Notes: generated from the letters alone by a model not told the origin. Shown: positions 221-59,950, counted from the stretch's first letter. The stretch: DNA of 64,000 nt from Yuukianura sp. NJ FZ-2021 (GCA_046563655.1 CM102284.1:2542001-2606000), one strand, 5' to 3'. Made by a program: numbers and translations.

Positions 221-898
221 TTTTAATGTGAATTGACCTCGTACAGGTTTGGTCTAGTTACCACTGTAGAGTAACGAGTGTAGCGTAACTGTAGTGGCGT
301 AGTGTATTTAGTAAGTGAAAGAAAGTGTAGAGTTGAAAACAAAATGTAAGTATTAAAACTGGACTTCTTTTGTTCTTGTTCTTGAAGAGTCTCTCGCAGT
401 ATCTGCTGATTAGTCATATCCTCTAAATTTTCGTTGTTGAATTGAATACTGAAGGGGGTTGAAATTGAAAAACAAATTGATCTCACAAATCAGCTGAGTA
501 ATACTAAGCTTTGTACAGAACCTTTTGGATTTAGGTTTATTTTTCTTGTTTTAATTGCCGAATGCATCTTTGTACGCTATTTCGACGAACGTACGCTAAA
601 GGTATTCTAATCTTTGGTGCCCATATTGCTACGAGTTAAACTAAAACTCATTGTCGCTGAACTCTTTTAGCCAAACAACAATTTCTTATTTTATTTTGGA
701 TCGACCTGGGAACTGTAGTCTGCGAAAAGAAGCATTCAATGCAAAAGTGTAAGTTCAATGTAGCTTGGTTTACCTTATTTAACTTTTAGGAGTTTAGCGG
801 TTACAACAGTTTGAAATCACAAATACTTATTAATTTTATTAAGTACTTAATTAATATTTTTAATATTGGAATATATACATTAATTAATATTTTAGGAA

Positions 899-1387
899 AT
901 GGACGAAGAAACTGCCCTATTCGGAAACCACATAAAACCCGGGCAGGGGGTATTTGCAATTTTTTGGATGCTGATAAACTTCGGCTTCTCAATTGCTTGC
1001 ATTGCAATTGCTGTTGTCCATAATCATCCATCGGATTGCCCTGCTGCCGCAACTCTATCAAATTCCCTCATTGTCTTTGGAACTCTGACTATCCTTGCAA
1101 ACTTTGTTGAAGCTGTGAAGAGACGCAACGGAAGTTGCGATGACTGTACCAAATGCTGCCTATTTTTCTACGGATTGATCTACCTTTGCTATTTAGGAAG
1201 TTTCATCTCTTGTTGTTTGATTGTCTTTCCTCTGGCTCCGTACGTAAGATATGAACCTTACGCCTTTGCAGAGGTCAACTACTATTGCAACGCAACGCTA
1301 TTTCTATTCTCATACTGGCTCATGATTGCCACTTTTGTATTATACCCAATCTTCACCGTCTTCATGTACTTCTTCGGAGCAGTATGA
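899..1387 (+). CDS. TMEM272-like small 4-TM membrane protein (paralogue 1)
   Basis: 162-aa ORF with four hydrophobic segments, a DCPA..LxxxLIVFG motif after TM1 and NYYCNATLFLFSYW before TM4. A splice acceptor (tttag, 891-895) lies just before the ATG. Clearly similar to 15482..15997 and 17262..17914. Confidence 0.7.
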   Translation: MDEETALFGNHIKPGQGVFAIFWMLINFGFSIACIAIAVVHNHPSDCPAAATLSNSLIVFGTLTILANFVEAVKRRNGSCDDCTKCCLFFYGLIYLCYLGSFISCCLIVFPLAPYVRYEPYAFAEVNYYCNATLFLFSYWLMIATFVLYPIFTVFMYFFGAV

Positions 1388-1697
1388 GAACTACCAAAAA
1401 AAAAATGTTTTTTATTTTTGTCACAGTTTTCAACAAACTAAAAAGTTAATAATTTACTCCATCCTGAAAGGTGGAACCAGAAACTCAAAATAAAGTGTAG
1501 GCATTCACTCTGCCGTTTACTTTTTGGAAAGTTTCATCAACGTTTTCAAATGTTAATAAAAGTTTGAATTTAACCCCATTTTTTTTAAAAAAGTGGAAAT
1601 TTTTTAAAAGATGATTCTAAGGAAGCAACACAATTGACGCTTTGAGAAGAGCCTCAATGTTCAATTTAGAAAAAAAAATTGCATGACTTTTTAGTGG

Positions 1698-3077
1698 CTA
1701 GGAATGGCCAATTTTTGGTTCTGCGCTTGAAATGGTCGTCGTATGTTTACCAGCGGCGGCTCTCAGAAGTTGTGATTTGCGCAAGCGTAGCAAATTTCTT
1801 TCAAGCATGGTCACCGTAACTCTTCCTACAGAGTTGACCACCACGGATGCCTTTGTGGCAATGTCATCTTCAAAGTTCTTTTCACTCGAAAAGTTAATGG
1901 CAATCAAGCCATCTTTCAGTGCCGATGTACGCACTTTGTAGTCTTTGCTTGGAACACCCGTAATCACCACGTCAGCTATTGGTAAAATCTCATCCACGGT
2001 CATAGTTGTATCGGCAACCTAAATTGAAACAGGTCAAAGGTCACTGCGTAGTTCGTTTGTAGCTCAATTTGAATATGACCTTGACTTAATCTTACCACGT
2101 GCTTCCTTAGCCCTTCTCCGCGCTCAAAAATCAATACATCTCCGATATCAATGGAGTACACCGTGGCTCCGTCATTGGCCAGAAGCGCTGCCAGTGGCCG
2201 ACCAACCACTTCACTCCGATTGATTATCGCAATTCTTCGACCGAAGAGTTGGTTACCATATGGAATGTCTGTATCGTACACTCGAAGGTACTCGAGAATC
2301 TAAAAAAAACGAAATTTTTGAAAATATTTATTTACGTCCTCCATTTAAAAAAAAGCACTCCTTGCTACCACCGTTTTGGTTTTTTACTTTTTTTCTTAAA
2401 TAATTTTTGGAAATATTTTGAAATTAAAAAAAAATAAACCTTCAAAATTCCGAGTGGCGTGCACGGAACGATGGACTTGAGCGTGTGTCCATGATCCACA
2501 AATCGTATGTTGTGGTACATATTGAAGCGATACTTATGGCAAAGCCCTTCAACGTCCTTGTACGGACTCACACAGTTCTGGATATACTGGTCATGTCCAC
2601 CTCCAAACACTGGGTAGTACACCATGATTCCATGAATATCAGGATCATCATTGGCTGCAATAATCGTGTCCTCCAGTTCCTCTCGTTTGACCTTTCGAAG
2701 TTCAAAGTCAATCCCAGTCGCAGCACAACTCTTCCCAGTCCAAAGTGCATAACTCTCCGCAGACGGATCAGAGTTTGCCAAATATCCAACCAATTTCACT
2801 TTAATTTTCTTCTCTTTGATCGTCTTGATCAAGTCCACTCTGGAAAATAGTGAAGGAGTGTCAACATCATTTTTAAAACCAACATGCAATTGGAATCAGA
2901 CCAATTTTTCAATTTGTGAATAATGGGTTCCAGCAAAAGTGTAACGTTGACCTTCGACTCGACCTTGACCTAAGCAAAAATTAATTTCAGCTTTACCGTT
3001 ACGAAGGCTTACTTGAATGGACCAGCAACGTCTCCTACATTTAAAACTTTTCCTTTCTTTTCTTCTTCTGCACTCAT
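1698..3077 (-). CDS. MTD1: NAD-dependent methylenetetrahydrofolate dehydrogenase, monofunctional yeast MTD1 type; exons complement(3013..3077, 2440..2839, 2096..2299, 1698..2018), ~329 aa
   Basis: Four exons join in frame through GT-AG introns. The motifs LVGYLANSDPSA..YA.WT, GIMVYYPVFG..DQY, KDVEGL, KSIVPCTPL, INRSEVVGRPLAALLANDGATVYS, DVVITGVPS and G.VT.TML.RN.LRL match S. cerevisiae Mtd1 as I recall it. Confidence 0.92.
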
Positions 3078-4926
3078 CGTCAAAAATCGGTCGCCTTTAA
3101 ACTTTTGTTTAAAAAAATGACTTCAAAATCGGAACTTTGCCAAACTTGAAACGGAAACTTTTTACTTGAAAACTTCTCTCTCTTCACTAGAAAGCTTTGC
3201 TTCTTGGTAACTGGTTTTAGCGGTTTAAAAATAACTAAAAACCAAAAATGTGAGTAATAGCCTAAGTCGACAATGACGCCATTGTTTCAAGTGTTTAAGT
3301 TTGAGTGCTTAAATAAATTGTCTGTTCAACGCCTATGCGTAGTAGAACAACAACTAAAAGCTGTTTAGTAGGCGCCTTTAGATTTTTTTTTAAATTTCAA
3401 AACAGTCATTATGTTAGACACTATACATCCTTAGCATGGATCTAAAAAATATCTAGCTTTCATTCCCGCATGGTTATAAAAATATTTACGGTTTTTTTTG
3501 TTACTAAATATTTATTTATTTGCCGCCCTTAATGTCAAATAAGTAAATATTAGGTGATTTAGGAACGATTTTTTGTTTGTCAATATTTTGGAGCTTTTTG
3601 TCTCATATTTTTGACTACCCTGATTCATAGTCATTTATTATTTTTTTTTTTTTGTAATAAGACGCTTTGACTCCAGACAATCAGAATTACAATTTAAGTC
3701 TCACAGACGCTGTGAATGAAGATGAACAAAAACACTTGCGACATCAATTTTTCTTTGGCGATTTGTCGACAACCGACAAATTAATAAATCCAGAATTGGC
3801 TGACAGATAAAAGAGGATTTTATTACAATTCCTCTACACTCAAGGGGATCATGACATAGATGGGTTGAGCAGCAAGGCTGTAAAAAAGCGGTTAATAAAA
3901 TACAACCTTCATAAAAAATAGTAGAAACTAGAATTTATGTTTTTGTGCGCCAAAGTTTCTGGTATAATTTTACTTTCAGTTTTAATATGAGATTTAAGTT
4001 GAAATCAATGTTGCGCTACTTTTTCTTTTCAATAATTCGCATTTATAGATTCGGTTAACCTTTTTTGAGTTCAAGTTAATTATATATGCCATCAAGTAGG
4101 AAACACACTTGGACTCTTGGTTTCTATGAATGCAACGGATTGTCATTAAAGGAAAGGTTAACTTTCGGAATAAAACCAGAATCAACTAACATAATCCGAA
4201 ATTTAACCTTCTAGTAATTCACAACTATTGTTTCACCTAACTTATCAAAGTCGCTTGAGACTTTAATAAGTTCAACTGAAAATCCCAACCCGTTGCGCAT
4301 TTTTCAATTTCAATGTTATAGTCGTATTATGCGAAAAGAAAAGAATATTTTTTGCAGTAGTAGTTTCAGTTGCCAATGCCAAAAAACGTGTCGCGACCTC
4401 GATTCTAACCCAAGTCCGTAGTCAAGAGGAAAGAGAAAAAATTAATTTTAATTTCGAAATCTTCTTCTTCGAAAACTTATGTATGTTACATCACACGATT
4501 AGGACGTTCTTAGGGCGTTAGAGAATTCGACAAAAATCTTTCTTCAGAATATGCACAACTAATCAGAGAGTGCTTATTTTTTCAGGTAAATAATAAAACA
4601 AAACTACGCAAAAAGATCGTGGTTTCCGGTTTCTGGCAGCCGATTTTGATTTTGATTTTCACACTGCCACAAAATTTTTAGAAAAATAGGAGATCGCAAA
4701 TGTGGCTTTTAAGGTTTAGTTGAGGTATTTTATGCGTCGTTTGTACCTAAATGAGATTTCAAAAACAAAAAGTATCCTGTTTAGAAGAGATAACGTATGT
4801 AAGTAAACCACTGATGAAAAGAACAGTAGTACAAGAAAAAGACAGAACAAATTAGTTAGTGGCGAAAATTTCACACGAAGAGACCTAAACTGGTGCTAAA
4901 AATTTGAATCAAATATCGTTGAAAAA

Positions 4927-7900
4927 ATGAATATCTATTTCACACATTCGATTTTAATATTTCTACTCACCGCGAATTATTCGGTTTACGCGTGGGGTGT
5001 AAGTATTTGAAACTTGAGTTACGCTACATCTATCTTCAGAAAACAAAGCAAAATTTCCATTAACATTAAATTTAAAACTCTACAAGAACAGATAAGCGTA
5101 TCCTCAGGGATATAATATATTTTTTTGACTTTTTAGAATGCTAGAAACTTCCGTTTGACAGGGTACCCCGGGCATTTAAAGACGTTTAGAGCGAACTTAA
5201 CAAGCACGAGATGTGAATTGAAAGTCTTCTACTTGTCTTATGCTACAGTCCATCGTAACGACCTGGTAGACTCCCTTCGCGGTTGTATTAAACTTGAATT
5301 GATACGTTTAAATCACGTAGTTTGGAATTGGAATGAAGATTCCTTATTGCAGAGCAAAGTTTATCTCCCGATGTTGTCAGACTTTGAATTCAAATTATTG
5401 CACGATGAAACATCGACTTGGAAGTCTGATGCTGATATTGAATCAATCATATTTTTCTACGTTCGTGGTGAACCCAGCGCCGGGTTTACAGAGCTGTTGA
5501 ACGTTGATTCCGTTGTTGTCAAAGGAAAAACAATGGAAGGAGGTCTACTCTTTGTAAAGAAAAGACAAGGTGCCGGTTTGGGTGCCATTGGAATCAAAAG
5601 TAAAAGTACGTGGAATATATTGCTGAAAATATGGCCTGCCTTGACGGAGATTCATTGTAAAAATTGTTTAGTAGACGTGACGAATTTCAACTTGAGTGCA
5701 ATGAAATTCATAAGCCTTAACAATACCTTAGTAGATGGTGGATCCTACAGCGACATCTTGAAGACAGCTAAAAGTGTACAGTATTTGAGTTTGGACGCAC
5801 CGCGAGAAACTGTAGTGGATTTTTCTACGTTGGATAAGACATTTCTCGTCGAGTTCATTGCATCAAATTTGACATTTTACTGGAACACGACTTTAGACGA
5901 TACACTTCCGTCGAATAGCTTATTGGATTCAAATTCCAGTTTTTTGAATCGCGGTGATTGTGCTTTAACGGTTTTTGGGTTGAAGCATGTAAGAGTTTGC
6001 AGGAGCTACGTTGTGACTTTTCTCAGACATTGTCACCGCTTGACTGTATTAGAAATCATGAACGTTGATTGGCAATACGATGCGCATACGATAAGCAATA
6101 GGGTCCACCTTCCAATGCTGGAGGTCTTTCGTTTTGCTTCAAGTTTTGAAAGTTCAAAATCCAGCAGTTCGATACTTGAATCCATTGTGTTTTTCCACAA
6201 GACTTCAAGTCCAACTGGTGTTCTTGAACTCCTGAATCTAAATTTTAGCATTTTTATTCGTGATAGGGAGTTTGCTATGCAATTCAACGAGAGCTTTTTA
6301 TTTGCTGACCGTTTGACGAACCCTCAAATATGGGACTACCTGTACGCGTTCATGTCAGCTTGGCAACTTGTTTATATTAGCCATTGTCAGCTAAGTGCCA
6401 AAAGAATGCAATTAGATGCGGCAAAAAACATATATATTTACTACAATAAATTTACCGAAGGCAATATTAGTGACATCCTAGAACTGGCAAAGGTTGCTGA
6501 GGATGTACAAATTTTTGTTTTAGAAGACGAGGCAATCGACATTGCTCTCTTACCCAGTGGTACGTTGCAAACGCTTGTCACAGACAAACTCAGTTTCCGT
6601 TGGACCTCAACGGAAAAACAATTTCCGAACCTTGAAATTTTAAAAATGAACGACGGTGACGTGAATTTACACTTGTTTGGAGGATTACAAAAGTTCCAAG
6701 ATTTGCAAGTGAGTCAAATGTACTTCTGGAATGGAAGTGGAGAAGTAATAAGTAGACTACATAACTTAACCAGACTTTATCTGTTGTGTGAATCTGCTAA
6801 CCAACACTGTTCTGAAGTATCTCTAGACACAATACCAGACTCAGTCACAGATTTATGTATGTTCAAAATGAATGTGAATTCTGAAAATATCCGTCCACGC
6901 TTCAACGCAAAACGCTTTATGTCCATTTGGTGTGAACTCCAGAATGATATTTTATATAACTTACCTATCATGTTTCCAAATCTGGAAGTTGTTGGATTTG
7001 ACATCCAAACTCTAATGAAACCACAAGTTTTTTCCAATGTACTCAAACTTTCATCTCTGCAAAAAATTGAAGTGAGCAGTGTAGTTGAACATAAAAAATT
7101 TAAAAGTCAACTCGAGGCTAACATTCGAGAGTTTTTAACTGAAAATTTTACATGGGAAAGTGACAACACCAAGATGTTAGTTTTTACACGAGTTCAAAAT
7201 CAGTGGAATTACAGTAGTGTTGAGGCACCACTCTACGCTTACCACCGTGCTCATCAGTCTTTTAGAATGTTTGGCATTACCGAAGAGAAAATTACACCAG
7301 AATTGTTGCGATCAATTTATATCGCCTACATTACCATCGTCTATTCGTTGAGTACATTGGGAATTCTGGGTAACATGTTGAGCGGTGCTGTACTATGGCG
7401 CAAAACAATGCATGGATCAACTACATCTCTTCTGCTTGCACTTGCACTCTGTGACTCTGTATATTTGCTTACAACTCTGGGAACTCTGAAGGAGTTTAAC
7501 CTCTTGTTTAGTGCCGGATTTGGAAGGTCAAAATTCGACGAAAAGTTGTACTACCCTGATGCAAATTCAATGGGTAAATAAAACACAATTTCTTCTTGTT
7601 TTAATAAACAGCTTGCCTATAAACAACTTTTTCATCTCAAAAAATTTTTATTTGAAGCTTACGCCCCACCTCGACTCTCAACTCCGCTTTTCCTCTGTGA
7701 CTCGACCTACTTGTCCGAAAAATCCTCGAGAGCAGAAGAAATCAAACTTTTATTTGAATTCGGATTCGGTAGCTCGAAATTGAACGGACACGTTGCTTAT
7801 CCTTTGAACAAAATTGGTAATATTATTAAGTATCGTCAGATACTTTTAGGGATCGTAATGTCCGTCTGTCCGTCTGTCTGTCCGTCCGTCTGTCCGTCTG

Positions 7901-9785
7901 TCCGGCCGTCCGTATACTAGCCACAATATCTCTGGAACCGCTGGACCGATTTTCAATCTGTCTTTACAGATGAACTTGGCATTGTCCAGGGATGATTAAT
8001 CGGTGTCCAGCTTGACCGGAAGTTGTCCAGGTTCGGGTCAAAGGTCAAGGTCAAATCCATTTTTGACGGAAATCGGGAAAGTCACCCTTATAAAAGTTGT
8101 CCGTCTCATCGAGTCGAACAACTTTTGTATAGGTGACCTTGACCTATGACCCGGGGCTCTGGAGATATAGGTCTTAGAAGTTGCATTATGGCGAGGCTCA
8201 TGCAATTCGCGTCTATAACTCCAGAACCACTGGACCGATTTTCAATCTGTCTTCGCGGTTGCGGTTCACATGTACCAGGGGTGTATAATCATTGTCCAGC
8301 TTGACCGGAAGTTGTCCAGGTCCGGGCCAAAGGTCAAGGTCAAGTACTCTATTGACGGAAATCGAAAAAATTACTTTTACAAAAGTTGTGTATCCCGTTG
8401 TGCTGAACAACTTTTGTAAAGATGACCTTGAGCTTTGATCTACGTTTCCAGAGATACAGACGATAGAAGTTGCAAAATGGCGTCCCTCGTCCTAGTCGGG
8501 GAAGCATGACCTACTTTATGTTTTCTCCCGAGTCTGGCTGTCTGTCTGTCTGCACAATATTGTCAAAGGTCAAGGTTATGCTTTCTTTACAATACGGAAA
8601 CGGATGGACAGACTCGGAAACGGTTTGCGGGGATCCGATTTTGATCACCTCGAGTGACCTCTAACAGGGTCAAGGCTCACGGTCCTCGTTTATTTCTACA
8701 ATTCGGAAACGAATGGACCGATGCGGAAATGGTTTCCGGGGATAGATGTTTGACGACGCGAGGACTAAAATTCCGAATGTTCTTTGACCTCAAGTGACCT
8801 CTAACCATATCAGAGGTCTAGTCAACAATATCCTGCGCGGGAACTTTCTATAACTGATCTGACGATACTTATTTACATCGTCTTTGCAAGAAGTTTATTT
8901 CTTTTACAAATATTTTCTGATTTTTTACATCCCAAGCTAGTTTCTGTTTTGAAGCCTGCAATAATGTTTTTAATGTTTTCAGCATACACCGCATCTGTGT
9001 ACATGACCATTTTAATTACAATCGAGAGGTTTGTTGCCATTTGTTTTCCGTTTCGTGCTAAGGAACTGTTTTCAATTTCGAGAACGAAGTTGTACAGATT
9101 TTGCGTTTTCGTCTTTGCTTTTACGTTAAACCTACCAAGATGGTTCGAATTCATCAAGTGGAGCTACGAAGCTGAATCCCCTAAATGGAGCGCACATTTT
9201 GCACGTCAACTTCATAAGTTCCCGCTTTATGAAGAAGTGTACCTTAAAGGAGTCTGGTATTTCTTCGTCTACGCTGTTCCAGTTTCAACTATCGCAATTT
9301 TGAACCTAATCCTTTGGATTCAAGTAAGGTTAAAAATTAATTTCCTATTTCAGTGCTTAAGTTTGAGCAATACTTCGCTTTTCGAAAGATTACGCATATA
9401 GTAGTTGATTTCAACATTTCAGGTAAGAATAGCAGCAGTTAGAAGGCGTCGTCTAAACCCTGGAGCAAGGAGGGCAGGTCCGGTGAATTCTCTAACAAGA
9501 GTTCTGCTTGCTATTGTTCTTGTTTTCTTCATTTGCAATTCGGTGAGTGGAGCCATCCATTGGTTTTTGATTTCCAAAAAAGCGGAACCGGCATTCGCAG
9601 AAATCTTTTCTTGTATTCCAATCATCTTCAACTCTGCAATTAATTTTGTTCTATACTACACGATGGGAACAAAATTTAGAACAGAACTTAAGTTAATGAT
9701 TCAATCTGCCTGGAACTATATTCGTGGTAAGTGTTGTACTACAATAACGTATGCTGAAACCCACGAATTAGATAGACGTGCATAA
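4927..9785 (+). CDS. Class A peptide-receptor-like GPCR (FMRFamide-receptor-like 7TM) with signal peptide and ~750-aa LRR-like ectodomain; exons 4927..4998, 5137..7573, [7658..7816], 8941..9323, 9423..9785
   Basis: Exon 1 encodes MNIYFTHSILIFLLTANYSVYAWG and splices in frame to the long ORF. 7TM motifs are GILGN (TM1), LALCD (TM2), ERFVAICFP (TM3), NLPRWFE (TM4), YAVP..LN (TM5), FFICN (TM6) and NSAINFVLY (TM7). All splice phases are compatible. Confidence 0.82.
7827..8871. mobile_element. DINE-1/HINE-like non-autonomous Helentron-type element in a GPCR intron
   Basis: Perfect 15-bp inverted repeat taagtatcgtcagat (7827-7841) / atctgacgatactta (8857-8871). There is a 5' hairpin aagtatc-gtca-gatactt, a (GTCC/GTCT)n microsatellite at ~7860-7913, and an internal ~290-bp direct repeat (ctggaccgattttcaatctgtct near 7940 and 8230). 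Confidence 0.7.
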
Positions 9786-11923: not shown

Positions 11924-14260
11924 TTACTTTTTCCGCAACCATATTTGTATATATGCGCAGAAGTTGAGGAACCCAAATTCGGAAAATGACATGCTAACAG
12001 TAAGTCTATCTTTCAAACGTGGTTTGTTCAAAATTGAGACAAACCTTTTTCTGTTACACGATGGAATTATTTCTACTACACCAACTGCAATTATCATTGC
12101 GACTCCGGCAGCATACAAGTACACAACTTCCATCTTAATCGCAAGAGGCGCGACTTCGCTACTCGTTTGATTTTTTCGAACAATATCCAATGCCTTTCCC
12201 CACTTTTCTGGATAGTGTTTGGTCCAATACTTGTTACAAATTTGGTAAATTCCAGATTGCATTATCCTCTGCATTCTACTGTAAAAGTACTCCGTGTTCC
12301 AATCTTGAAACACGAATACAAATGGTTGCCCAAATGCCTCTTCTAAACCTGTAAAAAATTTGACTTCTTTGGATTTGTAATTGCTGTACTCAATAAATGT
12401 GTTGATAACTTCGTTGTTTTCCAGCAGGGCAACTTGATGACAAGTTGACACTTTTGTGTAAACGTCTGTTGCATTTTGAAATTCTGTTGTGTACAATAAC
12501 TTTTCCGGAAGTCTGCCTCGTTTGTCTTTTTCAACATCATGCCTAACAAGCACATAAAAGTTGTGCATGTCAGTCATTTTAGTCATTCCATAAGACAATG
12601 CCATTTCCTGAATTTGAGCACAATTATTAAACACTTGACGAATACTTTCAGATTTATAGAACGCAGTGTCAGCTGAAGCATTTGACAAGCACGGGCGGTA
12701 ACCCGGAGTGCCAAAGTCAATTTGGTAAGAACGTGCTCCGTAGAACGTAGATGCACCAAATACCAGAGCATCGGTGAACTCCTGCGGCGCGTGAAATTTG
12801 ATATCCTTCATTTCACGGTAATATTTAAATGGTACAACAGCCTGAATTCGTACAATTTGATCAACTGCCCACCAGTTCCGGTATAAATTTGTAACAAAGA
12901 AGGCTTGAATTCCCCACATCCCAACCAAAATGCGGTAAATTCGATGCAGTGTATCACTTGAAATGATTTCAGCATTTGGATCTGGAGCAGTTTCAAGTAA
13001 CGTGCCGATTGTGATGGCCCAAATGTTGTACAAAAAATTCCAGGGATGCAGGCGTGGTTTTGAAGTTTTTTTGAAATATACGACAATAAATACAAATGGC
13101 AAAATACATAGTATTACGAGGTAAGCAATCCAATAGCTAGCTTCAAAGGGAGAATGGTACATATTAAATGACAAGATTTTCTCAGTTTTTGAACAGATTG
13201 CAAAATTCCAACTTGAAAATTTGTACATTACCATCCGAGTTTGTCTGTTTAATGGCTCTAACATCGACATTCCTTTAGACCTGAACAATCCCGTTCCTTT
13301 AAATAGAGTTTCCCAAATTATTGCAAACGAAGCAGCTGGACTAGGCTTTGAACTAGAATTCTTGAAATATACAATATCTTCGAAAAGAAGTTTGAACATC
13401 ATTGCGTTCATTGTGTAATGCTTTTCAAATCTCTTCGGTTTCTCAAATGGTGTTTCCAAGAATTCTTTGATGTTGTTAATATTTTGTCCCCTTTCTTTTT
13501 TGAAGATCTTTTGTGATCTTCTAGGCGGAATGATCTTTCCAACTTGTTGCAAAAGCATGCGGAAAATATACTCCACCATTTGAAACGAATAGCGATACCT
13601 CCCGGTGACGTTCTTGTTTGAGCTTGGCACATGAACTCCAACTGAGTTCCATGAAACTCGGGCCGAGTGAATTCGCAACTCAGAAACTCCATTTTGCGCA
13701 GTTGCGATTTCGATAATGTTCAAAATAATAAATTTTCTCTCAATCTGAAGATGGTACGCACCTGATGGTGGGCGATAGAATTTATTATGAGGGTACGTCT
13801 GACTGTGAAATGAAAATAACAAAATGAATGACGGAAATTCATTGCGCAGGCCCTTAGGGTCAAGATAGCCAACTCTTGTATGAATAAGTTCCTCCAGTTC
13901 CTTGACTGCGTTCAATTTAGCAGGAATCAACAGAAATAGCCGACAAAACGCACCGCGTCTTCGCCGTACGATTGCCTTGGGTGGTGGCTTTCGACTTCTC
14001 CTAAAATTGAGTTGGAGAAAGAAAGCTGAAAGTGGATATGCCAAGGAATCGAGTTGGACATCAGCCAACTGAAAAGATTCAAAATACAATTGAATGTCAC
14101 ATGATTGCAGAGGCTCCAGTAGTAGATTCAGATCCAGATATAAGTTTCTGTTTATTTTTGTTCCTACTGATCCAATACGTTGCGCAAGTGAAAATACTTG
14201 GAAATGGAGTACAACAATACTTAGAATGAGCACAAAGCGAAAAAAGGTAGTCACTTCCAT
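11924..14260 (-). CDS. Divergent ionotropic receptor (iGluR-related IR family), intronless, 778 aa
   Basis: N-terminal signal-like segment; SPF..YW before M1; RILVGMW..FFVTNLY (M3); RIMQSGIY..W (end of S2); C-terminal TM. This is the motif order of arthropod divergent IRs. Confidence 0.75.
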   Translation of the reverse strand: MEVTTFFRFVLILSIVVLHFQVFSLAQRIGSVGTKINRNLYLDLNLLLEPLQSCDIQLYFESFQLADVQLDSLAYPLSAFFLQLNFRRSRKPPPKAIVRRRRGAFCRLFLLIPAKLNAVKELEELIHTRVGYLDPKGLRNEFPSFILLFSFHSQTYPHNKFYRPPSGAYHLQIERKFIILNIIEIATAQNGVSELRIHSARVSWNSVGVHVPSSNKNVTGRYRYSFQMVEYIFRMLLQQVGKIIPPRRSQKIFKKERGQNINNIKEFLETPFEKPKRFEKHYTMNAMMFKLLFEDIVYFKNSSSKPSPAASFAIIWETLFKGTGLFRSKGMSMLEPLNRQTRMVMYKFSSWNFAICSKTEKILSFNMYHSPFEASYWIAYLVILCILPFVFIVVYFKKTSKPRLHPWNFLYNIWAITIGTLLETAPDPNAEIISSDTLHRIYRILVGMWGIQAFFVTNLYRNWWAVDQIVRIQAVVPFKYYREMKDIKFHAPQEFTDALVFGASTFYGARSYQIDFGTPGYRPCLSNASADTAFYKSESIRQVFNNCAQIQEMALSYGMTKMTDMHNFYVLVRHDVEKDKRGRLPEKLLYTTEFQNATDVYTKVSTCHQVALLENNEVINTFIEYSNYKSKEVKFFTGLEEAFGQPFVFVFQDWNTEYFYSRMQRIMQSGIYQICNKYWTKHYPEKWGKALDIVRKNQTSSEVAPLAIKMEVVYLYAAGVAMIIAVGVVEIIPSCNRKRFVSILNKPRLKDRLTVSMSFSEFGFLNFCAYIQIWLRKK

Positions 14261-15481
14261 TTTCTCTTTTCACAAAGCGTCTGACATATAGATAGTTCCT
14301 GCAAAAAACAAAGGCATAACCACTTAAAAACTAGGATGCTGAAGTTTACTCTAAATTAATTTACTCATTATGTATTGGACTTTATATAAAAAAAATTGTT
14401 CGACACGAGCAAATATGTGCAATAAACACCAGCCACAAAATTCTAGTTCTGATTATTATTTTAAAATTAATTAATTTGATGAGGGAAATTAATTCCAAAA
14501 AGTGCTTTTTTAATGTGTTCGTGTTTGTCGTGATATCACAGAAAGGTGTCAATTCTTTTGGTTAATGTAGTAAGTTCATGTATACGAAAATCGATTGTCC
14601 TCGATACTCCTGTGAAGCTGAAAAGTTTTACAGCTAACTAAATTTGTTTAGAATCGACAAGACTTGTGGAGTTCTACAAACGTTGAGCTTTTAGTACGAC
14701 AAGAAGAAAGAAATGAAAAATTGTAATTGAAAAATGAAAAGTTTGTACTTTCTTTAACACAAAATCAGTTGAGTCAACCCATAAATGTAAAACTTTAAAA
14801 ATAGTGGTAGAAGGGAGCAAAAAAATTAAAGGGCAGAATTTCGCACGTCCTCTTGGGTGCTCAGGATGTTTATGTCAAATGCTTCCAAGGACAAGCAATG
14901 TTAAGTTACTCATCCTCTCGTGCAGATCTACTCGACCAGGAAAATATAATATTTATCCAGTTAGTAACAACCCATTGAGTCGCACGACTTTAGTTGTCTT
15001 TGTCTTAACTAAAAGTGAGCTTTAAAGGAGCAATTACACAATTTAGTTGGTTTAGTTAGTAACAATTTTAATCAATATAAAATTATATATAAAACTAATT
15101 AAGTTGTTTACACAATTACTAACAAAGCTTTGTTTCATAGAGCCGGTTAAGCGGAATTGAAAATTCATTTGAAATTCATTTAAAAAAGAATTGGAGTGCC
15201 GAAGTTCTCGCGTCTATAAACAACTTAAAATTTTTTGTAGCCGTAAGTTTACACAAAAGGAAAAACATAAAAGTTGTGTAGGTTTAAAAACTTTAAATGA
15301 AATGTGTTTTGCTTAGAAACTTGAATATTTACTTTACTATAAAATCTGTATTTACTATCAACTGCACTTTGGGCGGAAACTCAAAATTCAAAATTACAAC
15401 ATTAACAACAATCACATTTCGCGCCAATTTTTTGTATTGTACTAATTCCAGTTTTTACTCTAATTTTCTACTTTCAGAGAA

Positions 15482-15997
15482 ATGGACGAAGAAGCAATTA
15501 ATTTGCTTGGCGGTAGACGCATCCCGCCCGTTCCACTGCCGATCACATTCTGTACCTCTATTATCGGTTTTTGTGTTTCGATTGCTTGTATTGCCATTGG
15601 CTCAATTTACCAGGACGAGAAAAATTGTCCCGCCAGTCCCCAATTGGCAAACATCCTCATCACCTTGGGAATCTTAGCAATTGCATCCAGCACATACGAC
15701 ATCTGGAACAAAGCACGGGAAGAAGGTGATAATGAAAACCCATGCTGCAAATGTAGTGTTACTCTCCTGCGATTGGTCCATTTTGGATTTTTTATTTGGC
15801 TGTGCGTCGCTGCCTTTGGTTTGGCTGCGCATGTCAAGTACGACCCATATCCAGTTGTGCCTGGACAAGCCAACTACTACTGCAACGCTACACTGTTCCT
15901 ATTCGCTTATTGGTTCATTCTAGCTACCGTCATCATTCTCGGAGTCTTCTTCTTTTGTTTTTGCTGCGCCTTAGTGTGCCTCTCTCTCGCCGCTTAA
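15482..15997 (+). CDS. TMEM272-like small 4-TM protein (paralogue 2)
   Basis: 171 aa. Shares SIACIAI..CPA and NYYCNATLFLFAYW with 899..1387 and has a Cys-rich C-terminal tail. An acceptor (tttcag) lies just upstream of the ATG. Confidence 0.72.
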   Translation: MDEEAINLLGGRRIPPVPLPITFCTSIIGFCVSIACIAIGSIYQDEKNCPASPQLANILITLGILAIASSTYDIWNKAREEGDNENPCCKCSVTLLRLVHFGFFIWLCVAAFGLAAHVKYDPYPVVPGQANYYCNATLFLFAYWFILATVIILGVFFFCFCCALVCLSLAA

Positions 15998-17261: not shown

Positions 17262-17914
17262 ATGGTAATTTCGTTAGCCAAGCTAAAGTAAATACAAGTT
17301 TCGAACAGCATTTTCTAACTGCAAAAACTATTTTCTGAAATTATTGCCGCGATATTTAGATTCGTTTCATTTTGATTTTGCAGGAAACTGACGAAACGTT
17401 GGCACTTCTTGGACGACCAATCAACAGTCCGTCCTTACCACACACTGCGCATTCCCCGATCTATTCCCCGGCGTTGCATTACATCCGACTGTCATTCACT
17501 ATTCTGATCCATGTAATCGTAATTGTTGGTCCTTTAGCGTCTCTTGTAATTGGAATAACCCACAAGGACTGCCCAGCCGATCCACTCCTAAGAAGTCTTC
17601 TTGGTGCTATGGGAATTCTAGGAATGTTGGTGAATCTTTATGATGCGACGTTACGCATGTCACAGACAAATGACGTTGAAGATCAAAACGACTTCAACTG
17701 CATCGTGGACCTAGTTCTTAAACCAGCGCATCTATTCTTTTTCGTATGGCTCTGCGCCCGTGTCCTTACGCTTGCTCCTTATGTCAAATACGACATCTAC
17801 CCCGTTCCTAAGGGTGAAGTCAACTTTTACTGCGACGCTACACTGTTCGTCTTTTCGTACTGCTTCATGGTTGCCTACGTCATTGCTCGTACGGCAATAT
17901 TTTTAATGTTTTGA
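17262..17914 (+). CDS. TMEM272-like small 4-TM protein (paralogue 3); exons 17262..17264, 17384..17914
   Basis: An ATG|GTAATT donor splices in frame to ttttgcag|GAA. Shares DCPA, APYVKYD.YP and NFYCDATLFVFSY with the other paralogues. Confidence 0.65.
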
Positions 17915-18456: not shown

Positions 18457-21400
18457 TTACCACACTCTGCAAAGTTTACCACCAGCTTTAAGTGAATTGT
18501 GACTAGAATTAGGCGGGCAATTCCACGTTGAATAAAACTCTTCAAAATTTTGAAGCGGCCCTTTGACCCTAAATTCGGGTGGACTGTGTCCGTCAGTCAG
18601 CATGTTGTGCTGAAGTGTCTCTGTTGTATATGCCTGGCATTCCATCTACAAAGAAAAGACATAAAAGCATACTAATTTTGAGTAAAGTTGTGAAACTTAT
18701 TGCAAACCTGTGCAAAGTATATAAAGAACAGTTGCATCGGCGTATAAGCTTCGAGTCCAGGCAATTGTCGTTCGATTCCCGCCCGTTGAGTGTACAATTT
18801 GTACGCAAGGAAGGCTTGTCTCAATCCAGCGTTGTCTGCAATATTCTCATTCAGTGTCAAGTCGCCATCGACCTGAAACATTCCACTTTTGTAAACTTTT
18901 TCTGTTGAAGTATATTGCAAAAGTTCAATTTTTCATGTAGCACAAAACTGAAATTTTGACTCACATGCCAAAGTGAACCACCAAAATTTACTGTGTAATT
19001 GGAGTATTGATCAATAAAACACTGCGACCGCTCCGTATAAGAGTTCCAAGTTTTGGGTTCCAGCCAGTGATGATAATTTCCTTTAGCATCATACTGGAGT
19101 CCTTTAAACAATATTGAAACTTTAGCACGAAAACTGACCATGATTAGGTGAAGTCCTGCTGCTCATACTCACCTGTGTAATCGTAACCATGTGACATTTC
19201 ATGTCCAATGGTGAATCCTAAAGCAGCATAGTTCAGAACCCTGTATTAAAAATAATTTCAATCTAATTTGCTAGGTGTCAGAATTTTTTTTTTAATTTTT
19301 TTTTTCATAATAAGTAATTTTTGTCATAATTTACTGCATTGGCATCCGAAAAAACGGTGGTTGAAGTAACCCAACAGGAATATCTATAAAGTGAGAATAA
19401 TGAATAATTCATTATGAACACAAGGGCAACTAATGGTGTCTTGTATGAATCAGACTCTACGTATTTCGTTATTTTCGTAGGAGTGGTAAGCGTTGATCTC
19501 CGTCTCCATCACCGAAAATCTGTTCAAATTTTTTTAAACAAATGAAGTGAGTACGACTTCAGAAATCGTGAATTCAAATCTGCTCAAACACTAGAACCGA
19601 AAGTTTCGGTCCGAAACCAGAGATTTTCTTCTAAATTTTTCCAAACAAATTTCCAAACCTTACCCAGCAAGATTATCTCCAAGTCCAAGCTCTTCACTCA
19701 ACTCAACTGTTACGCTCCACTGAAGAATTTGAAGATAATTGGAAAAATGGTTACTCCCTGGTTTCAAATCTGGTAGATTTTTGTAAAATTCTTCCAGGAC
19801 AAAAATATCAAGGAATCCTACACGTTGTCCTATAATTGCGTTCATTTTGGCTAATTTGTGGAGCGCCATTTCGTGTGTTTTGAAATCCAACCAATCCAGA
19901 CGCCTCAACATATGACCAAACGCTTCCCTCAAATCGGTGAGTAGAATTTCAAACTATACAAAAAGAAAGTTTAAAAAGCACCAAATGCAAATAGGGATGC
20001 CGCCGTTTCTGTGTAAAACGGAAAACGGAACGGACATTCCGTTTTTTCCGTTTTCGTTTTTTGAATTTTCTGAAATGGTACTTTACGTTTCGTTTCCTTT
20101 TTCGAAAAAAAAACTAAAATCAAAAAAGGGAAACCATAAAAACCAGGGGAAATGCCTACTTTTGTGCCTCCTGTACTGAAATTTTGGGAAATTAAAAATT
20201 GCATTTTAAAATTATAGCCCACTCTAGCAATTTTGACCACATTTGGAATGATATAAAGTGTATTTTCGAAGGGCAGAACGTGAAGTTCAAGTTTTGCGCT
20301 TCCAAAATACACTTCTTTCACACTCAACCGTTTTTCCGTTTTTCAACCGTTTTTTTCCTTCCGTTTTCGTTTATCTGTTTTATGACCGTTTCCGTTTCCG
20401 CTTTACAGCCTAGCGTTTCGTTTCGTTTCCGTTTTTTGCTAAAAACGGAAACGAAACGCACGGAGGCAACCCTAAACGCAAATGCTCAAAACTTTCAGCA
20501 ATATAATGTGCTTCACACTACAGTTTTTATAAAAATGAAAATTTTTACATGACGAATATTGTCTTCGGCAAAGTATTTCTGCATGTAGCGTGTTGATACT
20601 GTAGCACCCAGTAGAGAGGATGTTGTCTCTACGCAGGCGTGCCATCTAAGTTCAGAATTTTTGTAATTTATAACAAAAAGTTGAGAAATCGAGGTGATAA
20701 TATTTTAAAAAAATTTTTTTTTGGTTGTACTGAAATACCTGGGTGGTGGTAATTGGAGTCCTGTTGTCGCTTTCTCATTTTCAAAAAAAATTGCACGCAA
20801 CTTGCCGCTGGATTCTTTACCCAAATCCTGGATTATGCGCCACTTTAAGTAGTTCACTGCGGTACATAAAAAAAACGCACAAAAGTTGTACGATTCAAAT
20901 TTCAGCTTTATAAAATTTTAATAATATCCCATTAATGTTACCAATATCTCGTCCGTTGTAGTCTACGTTCAAAACGGTTCCTAGTTGCTGAAAGTAATTC
21001 AAATCGACAACCGCAATTTCAAACACAGTTTTGTTTGGAGAAGTCGTTCTGTTTGTTGCGGCAAGTCGAAACGTTTGATCAAAAAATGTGTCCCAATCAA
21101 GTGCCTTAAAGTTCAAGCATTTTATATATAATTTTTTTTCAAAAACAATTTCTTGGATATAATTGTAGCAGTTACGGTTTCTTCTCTAGTTAGGTTTTTC
21201 AATTCATCCAATGTCATTTCTGTATGCATTGAAGAATAGTTCATTCGAGAATGATCAGGGGTAGAAATCTATAAAGCAAACCGGTATGTCCGTGAGTATG
21301 ACCTAAGGTCACGTAGCATATTTCTTACCTTGGCCATGGCCATTTCCAATTTCAAGATATCGTTTGCAATTTTTTTGGCTCTTGCATCTTCGGTTGAAAA

Positions 21401-25407: not shown

Positions 25408-26418
25408 ATGGGCAAAACTAGGAAACCAACTCAATCTGCAACGGCGACATCTACAGACTCACCTGAAGTTTTTTCATTGGTTCATCAAAGTTCAGTTCCG
25501 CGAGTACAACGGACTCAGATCACGGGAAAAGGACACCAGGGAAACAGCAGGGAAAGAGAAAAAACACAAAGGTTAGACCTCAATTACTATTAAAAAAAAC
25601 TCTCGAAATCTCACAGATTTCAAAAACAGACTTATGCATAAGTCTGTTTTACAAATAAAGTTGTAAGTTTTTCAAAGTTTTGGACAAAAAATGGTTGACG
25701 GCAGGATATACTTTGCATTACATGCGAAATTCGTCTTCAAGCATTTCTTTACGAACCTTTTGAATAATTTTTGGAATTACTTCGGAATTTAATGTAAATT
25801 TCAACTTTGAAATTTCAGTGTGAACATTGCCTTCACAGCACTTCGCACATTAATTCCAACGGAACCTGTTGATCGAAAGCTTTCCAAAATTGAAACTCTG
25901 CGCCTAGCGTCCTCCTACATTTCACATTTATCGTCTCAACTAAATTCCATAGGTGGGGATTTTTTGGTTTTTATTACAATATTTCCGAAACGAAATCTTA
26001 TAATAAAACGAGAAATGAAAAGAAGGAGTTTACATTGGTGTTTGTTTTTATTGATCTAATTTTCACTTTCACTACACTATCCACAGATCAGGCTTACTGT
26101 TCACCAGATGACACTTCTGCAGCAAATCAACACAAAGTTTGTATTTTCTGTCTATCTGAATCCAAGAAATCCGGAGTAAGTGACAATACTGAAATGTTGA
26201 CAATTCCTGTTCTGAACAATATTACTTAACATATTTATGTTAAATTAATGTGCAATAAGTTTGTTTTTATTTTAATTTTACAGAGAGCAACAATGACAGA
26301 GTGTAGTAAAGCTCCAACACCAATCAACTACCAAGATACTGCAGAAAGTAATTACGCTTTACTTGACGCTGAAACCAACGCTATCCCATTTCCAATTGTG
26401 AATAATGTGTTTTATTAA
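25408..26418 (+). CDS. Paraxis/scleraxis (TCF15/SCX)-family bHLH transcription factor; exons 25408..25571, 25819..25952, 26087..26175, 26284..26418
   Basis: The spliced product contains [47 protein letters not shown] plus the family C-terminal motif VCIFCLS. All junctions are GT-AG and in frame. Confidence 0.9.
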
Positions 26419-26931: not shown

Positions 26932-27195
26932 TTATTCAATGTCTCCGGAAGTCATGATGAGTTTAGCCTTTTCAATGGATTCTGCTTGAATTTGTTCTAA
27001 TTTTTCCAGCGTGTATGACTTCAACGGCAAGAGCTTCGGTTTTGAAAGTACAAATGACAGCGAGTCTTCGTAGTGTAAGTAGCCTTTCTTAGGCAACAGT
27101 TCTTTAACACTGCCAGCAGAAGGCAGCGTTTCTGTGGATACTGCTCGTTTACTGGATTTTCCAGTCTTGGTTCTTTTATTATTCGAATCGGACAT
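26932..27195 (-). CDS. BBIP1: BBSome-interacting protein 1 (BBIP10)
   Basis: 87 aa containing ELLPKKG.L..ED...[19 protein letters not shown], the conserved BBIP1 core. Confidence 0.88.
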
Positions 27196-28088
27196 AGTAG
27201 TTAGTTTGTTTTAAAATAAATACAACTTTTGATTTACAACAACTAAACTACGGATTCTGCTCCTCAAAATGTTGTGACTTTGGTTTCTAAGTCACAAAAA
27301 AAAACCTAGTTGGCACATGCGAATTACTTTCTGACTATGAAATGAACTTAAATTCTCATATTGTCAAAAAGAGGTGCTTTCTCCACATGCAAATTGAATT
27401 TTCGTGATTGATCACTGATTCCGTCTAAAGAAGATCTTTTTTGTTCATTGTAAAAATTTTTAAGACACTTTAAAAATTGGAAACTAAAACTTTTCAGCAT
27501 GTCATATTTTCGTTGTTATCTCAAAATTTAAAATGGTCAAATACTCCATTCGAAATTAAGATTTACGCTACCCTTCGTCACGCAAGTCATATTTTGGTTG
27601 AAACGATTCATAGCCTAACGCAATCCGAAATAGAGTTATATTTTTTTTTTTGTAATTTTTGAAAAAATTGTTTAAAACTATTCTAGTTCGATGAGACAAA
27701 AATAAAAACATGGCTTTAAAGCTTCTTTCTTGTTTTCCAACCAAAAAGGATTAAGTGCACACAACTTTTTTTTGAAAATGTGTCCCAATTAGGATACAAT
27801 ACAAGGCATATTTTTTAGAGCAGAAAACCGAAACAGTTCTTGGAAAAGTTACCTACAAGAAAATCATGTATTGACACGTTTTTTTTAACAGAAAATGGGT
27901 TGTTTTTCGATTTAAAAAAATAGGAACGTTGCAACTAAACTTTGACTATTCAGGTTTTTTTAACTTTTCTTTAGACGAATGAACGAGTCAGCGTTCTCCT
28001 CTAATTCCTTTCTTTGAAACTTAACCGTTCAAACTCGTGTATTTTTGGAGGAGTTATGTTTGGCTAAACCTAACTCCTAAGGTTCCCC

Positions 28089-44030: not shown

Positions 44031-45597
44031 GGGGAGGATGGGGGCAAGTGAATCACTTTTCGTTAGCAATTTTCTGTACTGAACACCGATAAGTTTTTTA
44101 GAAAAGTAGCAACGCTAACCATAAGCTACAACATTTTAGCACAACTCTAGCATTTTTTGACCTTTTGACTTTCTATACTAAGGTCACAGGAACAATGTTT
44201 TTAAAACCTTACAAGTGATTCACTTGCCCCCATAGGTGGGGGTCAAGTGAATCATGATATGGGGTCAGGTGAATCACTTTTATTGTTGTTTAAAAAACGT
44301 TAAATTACTATTAAAATCTCAACAAAAATGAACAGAATTATTAGTGGAAAACAAGTTTGGTTCTTTTTGGCCTCAGAGAAGTTGATTGGTCAAATTTCGA
44401 CACAGTTTTACGGCATTTTCTACGCGTTTTGGAGTCGCAGGATTCTTTCTGGTGTTTTTAGCGTGCTAATTAGATTTATTTAGATTATTTAGACCCATTC
44501 GAATTTCCGATGCTGCCAAGTGGACTGCCAGTCAAAAAGTGATTGTAAAATTTCTTCCGGGGAAAAATAAACATTGGCAGAATCGAGTTTCCAATTGCAT
44601 TGGCGGCGAATACAACTGTGACTAGAGTGCCGCTTTCAGCTGATGTCATTGCCCCAACTAACTTCACGCTTTCTGAGGCAATCACTTTCACGGTATCCGC
44701 GACAGTCGTAACTCCCGTCTCATCCACGTTGTAAATCGATTGTGGCTGAAAATTGTACCTGTCCAGGACTTCCGCAAGTTGGGTAAAAAATGTCGTTAGG
44801 CTATTCTTATTGAAACTGGTACCTCTAGCTAAACTTGTGGCTTCTGGCTTACGAACTGACAGCGTTGGATGTCTTCGCATGAATCCTAATAAATACCATT
44901 CTTGTCCCGCTTGTAAATTTGTATCCAATTCTGGTGGATGTTTTATTTCTTTTTTTTTTTTTCGCAAATTCATTGCTTGCGACATTCCAGTGAAGTTAAG
45001 CCAAAATAAACAAAACGACGAAGCGTGCTGTTGGGAATATTGTTCAGCGCTGCCACTTTCCTGATGCCTTTCCCGTTAAGAACTTGCTCTCCAGCAAGTT
45101 CCATGACCTTCTGCTCAATCCCCCAGGTAGTTTTTTTTAAACGTTTTCGAGGCATCGTTCTGCAAATATGAAGAGAAGGTGATTCACTTGCCCCCTAACC
45201 GAGTGATTCACTTGACCCCATACCGCTTTTTTTAAAACAATTGCTTAGTGTGGGTTGACCTTGTACAAATACTTTGACCTCAAGGTCAAAGTTTGCGTTA
45301 AACTGTCTAATACAAATAATCACTTACCTAATGTTTCGGTTTAGACGTCACCAATTGTAAAATCAACGACCAAGTGTCAATGGAAAATTTTTACTTTTGC
45401 TGAATATTTGTGAATTTTTTTTTTAAATTAAGCTCATCGACAACAACGACATGAAACTGGGTTTCTATGATTTGCCGCATGAAGTTAACAATTGGGATCA
45501 TCTATAATTGATTTTTACAGAATTTTAGTGATGCACTAAATAAAGTTATTGCGAGTGATTCCCCTGACCCCATGATTCACTTGCCCCCATCCTCCCC
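44031..45597 (-). mobile_element. pogo/Fot1-like (Tc1-mariner superfamily) DNA transposon, internally deleted, 1567 bp
   Basis: Perfect 25-bp TIRs ggggaggatgggggcaagtgaatca; TA duplicated at 44029-44030 and 45598-45599; several internal copies of the GTGAATCA motif. Confidence 0.93.
44485..45155 (-). pseudogene. Truncated, frameshifted pogo-type transposase
   Basis: HTH_psq-like GIRKVAALNNIPNSTLRR, CENP-B-like W..GFMRRHPTLSVRKPE, and the first catalytic motif YNVDETG..TV. The rest of the DDD domain is missing. Confidence 0.85.
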
Positions 45598-59203: not shown

Positions 59204-59950
59204 CTAAGTTAACAAATAATACATCAAAATTTTAAAAGCAGTAGAAATCTAGGTTAAGTTAAATGTATAGTAAATAATTTGGAAACAGAACAAATTTAAA
59301 GTCAGAACGGTGTTGAGTTCCACTTTTGAATCCTAGTTTTCGGAAAATTATTGAAGGGAAAGTTGATAAATGGGAAAATTCCACGCGAATTTCTCATTAA
59401 AGGGAAATGGACTTTCTACGGGTTTCCTTTTTGGGTCGGTTTGATTTGAACGACGACGGGGAGTCTTAAATTCTTAATTTATGGAAACGAGAAAAAGTTG
59501 GGTCAAGGAAAGTTTTTGCTATGGTAAAGGTAAAACGTAGTTTTCTGGATTTAGCACGATGTGGATCATGGCAATCGATCAGTGCTATGTCAGTTGCAAC
59601 AATGAGTGATATTGGTTATGAATTTTGACAAGTGCATCAGATATTTATTGACCTCGAATGGCCGTTAGGGGTGGCAAACTCGTCCAGTTTTTGAGAATCG
59701 AGTCTCGAGTCAAGAATTTTGGCTGCGAGTCTATACTCGAGTCCAGACTCGAGTCCTACTTTTGATTTTAAATCATCAATTCTAGGAGTAAAAAAGGAAT
59801 CCGGTATTACGCCAGAAGCTAACATCGGTTACACATTGTCTCTTCGTCGAAAGCACTTTTCCAATTTGTGAACAAAATATCATGTGCCTTATGAAACGTT
59901 AACATTGAAATCATCAATTTTTTAACACTTTGTAGGTCTAAATTTTGGGA

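Follow-up and report, generated by a model that had tools for sequence, protein, structure and literature searches.

Mtd1, the methylenetetrahydrofolate (methylene-THF) dehydrogenase of yeast (PDB 1edz), belongs to a family that has been surveyed over 1288 species (PMC11064299, BMC Genomics 2024). In that survey, MTD1 is treated as a fungal duplicate, the bifunctional FolD/MTHFD2/MTHFD2L forms are ascribed to metazoans, and the words “arthropod” and “mite” do not appear. As stated in a second paper (PMC7738191, citing Wybouw 2018), two MTHFDs of the mite Tetranychus urticae were gained by horizontal gene transfer (HGT), while none were detected in Aculops; for the orthogroup OG0000706, the Aculops supplements give counts only. 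Judging from the matching number and name, these two MTHFDs are probably the two Mtd1-type proteins of T. urticae described below. Here, we report on a gene located at positions 1698-3077 (minus strand) of a 64-kb stretch of DNA deposited under the name Yuukianura sp. NJ FZ-2021 (GCA_046563655.1, CM102284.1:2542001-2606000), hereafter the window, i.e., the whole 64,000 nucleotides analysed. Orthologues of this Mtd1-type gene occur throughout Acariformes. Instead of marking an event new to this genome, it is ancient, common to the mite lineage as a whole and of a kind reported before, and in our view it probably goes back to a single old capture of Mtd1 by stem acariform mites. Full-text searches, in which subscription journals were largely outside the coverage, returned no paper describing the pan-acariform distribution of Mtd1 or its parallel in springtails.

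The gene is composed of four exons and three GT..AG introns, all on the minus strand, and encodes 329 residues between a start ATG at 3077-3075 and a stop TAG at 1700-1698. Exon 1 (3013-3077, 65 nt) contains the first 21 codons plus 2 nt, and its N-terminus aligns with those of mite and fungal Mtd1. It is followed by intron 1 (2840-3012, 173 nt, GTAAGC..TTCCAG), which interrupts codon 22 in phase 2, and by exon 2 (2440-2839, 400 nt), which encodes the catalytic THF_DHG_CYH domain. Intron 2 (2300-2439, 140 nt, GTTTAT..TTTTAG) lies in phase 0 after Lys155, while exon 3 (2096-2299, 204 nt) encodes the first part of the NAD(P)-binding domain, including its nucleotide-binding loop. Finally, intron 3 (2019-2095, 77 nt, GTAAGA..ATTTAG) lies in phase 0 after Val223 and precedes exon 4 (1698-2018, 321 nt), which completes the NAD-binding domain and adds a C-terminal tail that exceeds in length those of the aligned trombidid mite and fungal relatives, followed by the stop codon. 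All six splice sites are canonical and the spliced coding sequence (CDS) amounts to 990 nt, i.e., 329 codons plus the stop, with zero internal stops. The initial annotation of the locus, an intact stand-alone dehydrogenase of about 329 amino acids with three short introns, is thus exact. According to tblastn, the gene is single-copy within the window.

The same annotation had called the enzyme a fungal-type MTD1, and this assignment is confirmed by exon 2 alone, which matches yeast Mtd1 with an E-value of 5.9e-38, versus only 5.5e-7 for the best of the other 14 matched PDB sequences (FolD/MTHFD2 types). In Pfam, exon 2 corresponds to PF00763 (2.4e-21) and exon 3 to PF02882 (8.4e-7), the match of exon 4 to PF02882 (0.0015) being below the cut-off on its own. 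Together, the Pfam matches and the match to 1edz exclude a chance resemblance as the source of the Mtd1-type assignment. The protein has a stand-alone THF_DHG_CYH + THF_DHG_CYH_C architecture, without a formyl-THF synthetase domain, and its full length aligns to mite and fungal Mtd1 without large gaps. Moreover, the orthologue from the mite Leptotrombidium matches 1edz from residues 4 to 297 (2.2e-90), and its structure-atlas model superposes on Ascomycota Mtd1 clusters with a template modelling (TM) score of 0.95. All enzyme-named rows among the matches listed in our two protein searches (see below) are NAD(+)-type dehydrogenases.

The residues expected of a working enzyme of this type are in place. 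The motif KDVEGL, which holds Glu121 of 1edz, and the motif PCTPL, which holds Cys150 and Thr151 (numbering from the 1edz alignment), are both kept in the window protein; we take these three residues of yeast Mtd1 to be catalytically important, as in the yeast mutagenesis literature. At the position of the Lys of the YxxxK motif of FolD 3l07, both the window protein and 1edz have a Thr. In bifunctional FolD-type enzymes, this Lys is required for the cyclohydrolase step, and because it is replaced by Thr, the window enzyme fits a dehydrogenase only, with no cyclohydrolase step. The nucleotide-binding loop INRSEVVGRPLAALLANDGA is kept as well, being almost invariant in the alignment, and the Asp after the next strand (VYSID) is present as in 1edz. 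In Rossmann folds, an Asp behind the second strand is the usual mark of a preference for NAD over NADP. The predicted product is a cytosolic enzyme that would oxidise methylene-THF to methenyl-THF with NAD+, making NADH, and that would leave the cyclohydrolase step to the trifunctional C1-THF synthase of the host.

To place the gene among its relatives, we considered the best 120 matches of each of two word-filtered protein searches, one using exon 2 among longer proteins (152 matches at E ≤ 1e-3 from 240 candidates) and one using a profile of nine mite-type proteins (4855 matches at E ≤ 1e-20 among 8000 scored candidates). Over exon 2, identities among the matches listed are 74% for Leptotrombidium deliense, 71% for Dinothrombium tinctorium, 69% for Oppia nitens, 67% for Blomia, Tyrophagus and Sarcoptes, and 64% for Brevipalpus. 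Over the whole protein, they reach 67% for Leptotrombidium, 64% for Dinothrombium and 63% for Oppia, and 59-63% for fungal enzymes. All seven named animals among the best 120 exon 2 matches are acariform mites, the other named rows being early-diverging fungi, some ascomycetes, one dictyostelid and one EukProt colponemid, while the named animal rows among the best 120 profile matches come from mites (eight) and springtails (two: Orchesella dallaii and Folsomia candida). No insect, crustacean, tick, spider, nematode or vertebrate name occurs among the matches listed in either search. The initial annotation had described the Mtd1 type as characteristic of fungi and some protists; acariform mites and springtails carry Mtd1-type genes too.

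Spider-mite sequences are represented by the 90% cluster of P0017, which groups one Panonychus citri protein with two T. urticae RefSeq proteins, XP_015790519.1 (“methylenetetrahydrofolate dehydrogenase [NAD(+)]”, 311 aa) and XP_015794208.1 (“[NAD(+)]-like”, 186 aa). The label “DFP2” attached to the Mtd1-type protein of Sarcoptes (P0011, 317 aa) looks like a misannotation: according to PMC11351518 and PMC6806590, DFP2 proper is a secreted protein of 479 aa without known domains. A further search among cluster representatives yielded 263 clusters at E ≤ 1e-30, of which the best 150 were considered; most of the 148 new ones are fungus-like by BLAST, and the few named representatives among them that look like mites or springtails are basidiomycetes. 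Because mites merge with fungal representatives at 50% clustering, this search is uninformative on the distribution among animals.

Six read-through open reading frames (ORFs) from four clusters (P0012/P0310, P0311/P0191, P0007 and P0305) lose homology exactly after the Lys that ends exon 2, and continue with Val-Ser or Val-Thr, as a translated GTAAGT-like donor would. P0305 is a member of the T. urticae cluster, and P0012/P0310 recover homology after 21 in-frame codons. These contigs indicate that the phase-0 intron after Lys155 is common to the window, to astigmatid-like mites and to a tetranychid-type contig. Since its position is common across mite lineages, this intron either predates their divergence or came with the gene, and the gene itself was in place before these lineages split. 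The read-through ORF of P0007, a mite-like contig, has homology that begins only at the residue after the intron 1 site, a weak hint that the position of intron 1 may be shared as well. In contrast, contigs of the P0012 type read straight through the intron 3 site, so that intron 3 is not shared with that lineage. At the protein level, the motif GGGHDQY is found in the window, in all five named mites and in both mite-like contigs that were aligned, but in none of the five non-mite rows (fungal, springtail and dictyostelid).

Phylogenetic relationships were inferred by maximum likelihood (ML). In a first quick tree of 76 rows, the root consisted of one amoebozoan row on a very long branch. The careful tree was computed from 51 rows, picked by taxon from 300 proteins (P0001-P0300), and 313 columns under LG+C20+F+G4 by posterior mean site frequencies (PMSF), with three amoebozoan rows as the root; four rows with end branches of 3.6-5.4 (a diatom and three others) had been dropped from a 55-row tree. 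In this tree (supports given as ultrafast bootstrap, UFBoot/Shimodaira–Hasegawa-like approximate likelihood-ratio test, SH-aLRT), the window gene groups with Leptotrombidium and Dinothrombium (99/92), this group with Sarcoptiformes (97/85), and all mites together (91/68), including the long tetranychoid branch, whose clade stands apart from the other mites on a stem of 0.6. The sister group of mites contains all other non-amoebozoan rows, i.e., all fungi along with the springtails, Colp12 and Amoebidium (89/72). Within it, springtails group with Conidiobolus and Neoconidiobolus (97/87), whereas Amoebidium (P0145, EukProt), whose branch is long, falls within chytrids (96/92). The latter placement of Amoebidium parasiticum could be due to transfer, to transcriptome contamination or to artefact. 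An ML phylogeny had been proposed as a check on the origin of the gene, and it delivers part of the answer: orthology with mite genes is clear, but the tree points to no particular donor and is compatible with vertical descent. We also compared constrained topologies with the approximately unbiased (AU) test, using constraints that were chosen after the tree was seen and that have low power on one short protein; nesting mites with zygomycete and dikaryan fungi is not rejected (delta lnL 4.5, p 0.40).

Horizontal acquisition is the best explanation for these data and offers the most economical history of mite Mtd1. It is favoured because the distribution among animals is narrow in the two sets of best 120 matches, and not because of the tree. 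The donor would have been a fungus or a fungus-like opisthokont and the recipient the stem lineage of acariform mites, with one capture followed by a domestication that would have involved spliceosomal introns, a host-like base composition and purifying selection. Given that the gene occurs in both Trombidiformes and Sarcoptiformes with a common intron position, any transfer must have been into a distant ancestor. The initial annotation, which had suggested an old and domesticated transfer, is upheld in part: a transfer is still the best explanation, yet the gene is shared mite-wide and the tree does not nest mites in fungi. While the gene structure, the family, the active-site positions, the orthology with mite genes and the common position of intron 2 come directly from the data, the direction and timing of the transfer and its physiological benefit are inferred, as are the cofactor, the activity and the cytosolic location proposed above.

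Several points weigh against a capture by stem mites. First, mites are sister to the clade that contains fungi instead of being nested within fungi, and this topology is also expected under vertical descent in opisthokonts. Second, the AU test does not reject constraints that unite mites with springtails in one clade (delta lnL 16.8, p 0.21), or mites with springtails and Amoebidium (delta lnL 27.4, p 0.12). Third, the absence from other animals is the one seen in the two word-filtered searches, within the best 120 matches of each. Fourth, Mtd1-type genes also exist in dictyostelids, a colponemid, a diatom and the ichthyosporean Amoebidium: exact look-ups retrieved the Amoebidium parasiticum sequence along with a distant sequence of the diatom Odontella, and the atlas adds a diatom cluster. 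This occurrence implies that the family is old and patchy, and not strictly fungal. Lastly, the identification of the host as a mite comes from the tree of this very gene and from an arthropod-like neighbouring ORF, as no marker gene turned up.

Of the alternatives, the one that survives best, though we regard it as unlikely, is a vertical relic, in which the opisthokont ancestor already had Mtd1, the line towards acariform mites (perhaps along with springtails) retained it, and all other animal lineages lost it. The sister position of mites relative to all fungi, with Amoebozoa outermost, agrees with such a relic, as does the Mtd1-type sequence of an ichthyosporean, and neither the single arthropod clade nor the single holozoan clade is rejected. 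Nevertheless, many independent losses would be required, no other animal being named among the matches listed, and the free tree puts springtails with their Conidiobolus/Neoconidiobolus relatives and Amoebidium in chytrids, not with mites. The trees in which these groups are held together are 17-27 log-likelihood units worse, and the published survey regards MTD1 as fungal (PMC11064299). Orthologues spread broadly across animals had been put forward as a finding that would speak for vertical inheritance with loss; in our listings, the named animals are limited to acariform mites and two springtails, but the tree does not refute vertical descent. Consequently, vertical descent with many losses is disfavoured because of the distribution.

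A slightly less probable alternative is more than one transfer, either by separate captures in different mite lineages or by one capture shared with springtails through an animal-to-animal step. The long tetranychoid stem and the modest support for the monophyly of all mites would be compatible with separate captures, and the single mite and springtail clade left standing by the AU test with a shared one. Against separate captures, the position of intron 2 is common to the window, the astigmatid-like contigs and the contig of the tetranychid cluster. Furthermore, GGGHDQY is present in all aligned mites while it is missing from the aligned springtail, fungal and dictyostelid rows, and springtails have a fungal sister group of their own in the free tree. 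To judge from this grouping, springtail Mtd1 is likely to be a separate fungal capture. The springtail-type clade comprises P0144, P0135, P0068, P0139 and P0009, several of which occupy one full-length ORF each, on contigs 8-14 kb long. Taken as a whole, the proposition that acariform mites and springtails independently captured the same fungal one-carbon enzyme, the mite capture preceding the split between Trombidiformes and Sarcoptiformes, strikes us as evenly poised between true and false.

A decaying or silent copy without function is very improbable. The reading frame is open, the splice sites are intact, and both the active-site and the nucleotide-binding motifs are kept, while the protein still retains 59-63% identity to fungal enzymes. 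Among the five variant sites listed in the CDS, four are synonymous third positions and the remaining one is a Lys35Glu replacement in a variable stretch, which may be taken as a small hint of purifying selection. The gene is thus probably functional, as far as its sequence can tell.

With respect to genomic setting, the initial annotation had noted clearly animal genes on the same contig, and these were recovered. At higher positions in the window lie a rhodopsin-type G protein-coupled receptor (GPCR; 8805-9401), a 781-aa ORF resembling arthropod ionotropic receptors (11927-14269; atlas score 0.97, to be read as a lead and not as an alignment), a multi-exon neprilysin (M13; 18.6-22.3 kb), a bHLH exon (25811-26056), BBIP10 (26935-27210) and MAM-domain exons (58.4-59.2 kb). 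A homologue search with the neprilysin exon at 18675-18932 scored none of its 37 candidates, and a scan of the window against Rfam gave no match at gathering scores. Closer to the Mtd1-type gene, a small multi-pass membrane-protein ORF without a Pfam family (896-1387, plus strand) converges on its 3' end. This ORF has a paralogue at 15464-15994 (38% identity, E 1e-32) and a third copy at 17360-17914 (plus strand), all three having the motif N(Y/F)YC(N/D)ATLF in common; owing to these paralogues further along, the immediate flank belongs with the rest of the window. The 64 kb do not contain a single N, so that arthropod-type genes and host paralogues flank the Mtd1-type gene on a gap-free stretch, which shows that it is physically integrated. 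Base composition agrees, the CDS (GC 0.456, GC at third codon positions, GC3, 0.464) falling within the values of 11 ORFs nearby (GC 0.37-0.46, GC3 0.34-0.49).

Reads linking the gene to its flanks had been suggested as a further check, and short-read assemblies supply them. Logan contigs from two runs of one sample contain 0.88 and 0.79 of the words sampled from positions 600-8000 and tile this region with a similar depth over the gene and its flanks. One of these contigs spans 1298-1802, across the 3' ends of the Mtd1-type gene and its neighbour, while those at 1957-2496 and 2683-3367 hold exons together with introns. As both runs come from one sample, which may be the source of the window itself, they do not provide independent support. 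A run of a second study, with another organism code, contributes pieces at 603-1449 (flank), 1521-2842 (gene) and 5417-7532 (next gene), which differ from the window at about 2-10% of positions, according to the listed counts. Fungal contamination or a chimeric assembly at the flanks, which had been named as a possible refutation, finds its sole foothold in the lack of a listed short-read contig that covers all 7.4 kb, and it is the least credible of the alternatives, its probability being close to nil given the flank paralogues, the absence of gaps, the contig joining the two 3' ends, the even depth, the matching composition and closest relatives (among the matches listed and in the tree) that are mites and not fungi. 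The Mtd1-type gene is therefore a nuclear gene of an arthropod, and most likely that of a trombidiform-like acariform mite, judging by the affinities of its sequence.

Other features of the window are mentioned for completeness. Read depth jumps about 5- to 10-fold at 3317-3563 and more than 100-fold at 7763-8000 in each of the four runs, and loose ends are numerous; both segments look like high-copy repeats, and the second overlaps a stretch rich in GTCT/GTCC. A long ORF without Pfam match (5137-7581, plus strand) is followed by rhodopsin-type seven-transmembrane exons (8805-9785, plus strand), and the two may together make up a single large receptor gene whose N-terminal ectodomain is divergent. 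The ORF at 44485-45194 (minus strand) has a weak match to HTH_psq (E 0.0074) and a transposase-like NVDETG, and may be a pogo/Tc-like remnant. Between 51267 and 58000, there are three identical-looking copies of a higher-order unit of 2433 bp, in each of which a 43-nt repeat block is accompanied by about 1.3 kb of 15-nt minisatellite (about 90 copies, 79% matches), whose plus strand can be read as long TFLDQ-like ORFs. Finally, a 131-bp satellite (31 copies, 97% matches) occupies 59950-64000, up to the end of the window, with GC falling to 0.29.

For the window alone, these results carry little weight, since they add one more orthologue of a gene annotated in several mites. At a broader scale, the gene seems firmly established in the one-carbon metabolism of acariform mites, with springtails holding a parallel copy. 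Acariform fossils date the split between Trombidiformes and Sarcoptiformes to the Devonian or earlier. If a single capture by stem acariform mites is true, it would rank among the oldest retained fungus-to-animal transfers, and if the captures by mites and springtails are independent, they would point to a selective advantage of an NAD-linked cytosolic route for methylene-THF oxidation. The gene provides a manageable system in which to ask what makes an animal retain, in addition to MTHFD1 and MTHFD2, a second dehydrogenase that is NAD-linked. Moreover, it illustrates the weakness of a single-gene tree of 313 columns for proving or dating transfers.

Compared with the systems already described, the window gene is closest in kind to yeast Mtd1, with which it shares the two-domain architecture, the length class, KDVEGL, PCTPL, the Thr in place of the FolD Lys and a nearly identical nucleotide-binding loop; it departs from the yeast gene in residing in an animal genome, in its three spliceosomal introns and in its longer C-terminal tail. 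With the FolD/MTHFD2/MTHFD2L dehydrogenase-cyclohydrolases, it has the Pfam domains and the overall fold in common, but these enzymes match it at 5.5e-7 or more weakly, and FolD keeps the YxxxK Lys where the window protein has Thr. Among animal-borne sequences, the Mtd1-type proteins of T. urticae belong to the same family and, through P0017, to the same mite clade, at 58% identity to the window protein, while differing in their Tetranychoidea lineage and long branch. The springtail proteins (Folsomia candida P0144 and Orchesella dallaii P0135), at 54-55% identity, are likewise carried by animals, yet they group with Conidiobolus and Neoconidiobolus and are without the GGGHDQY that the window protein has.

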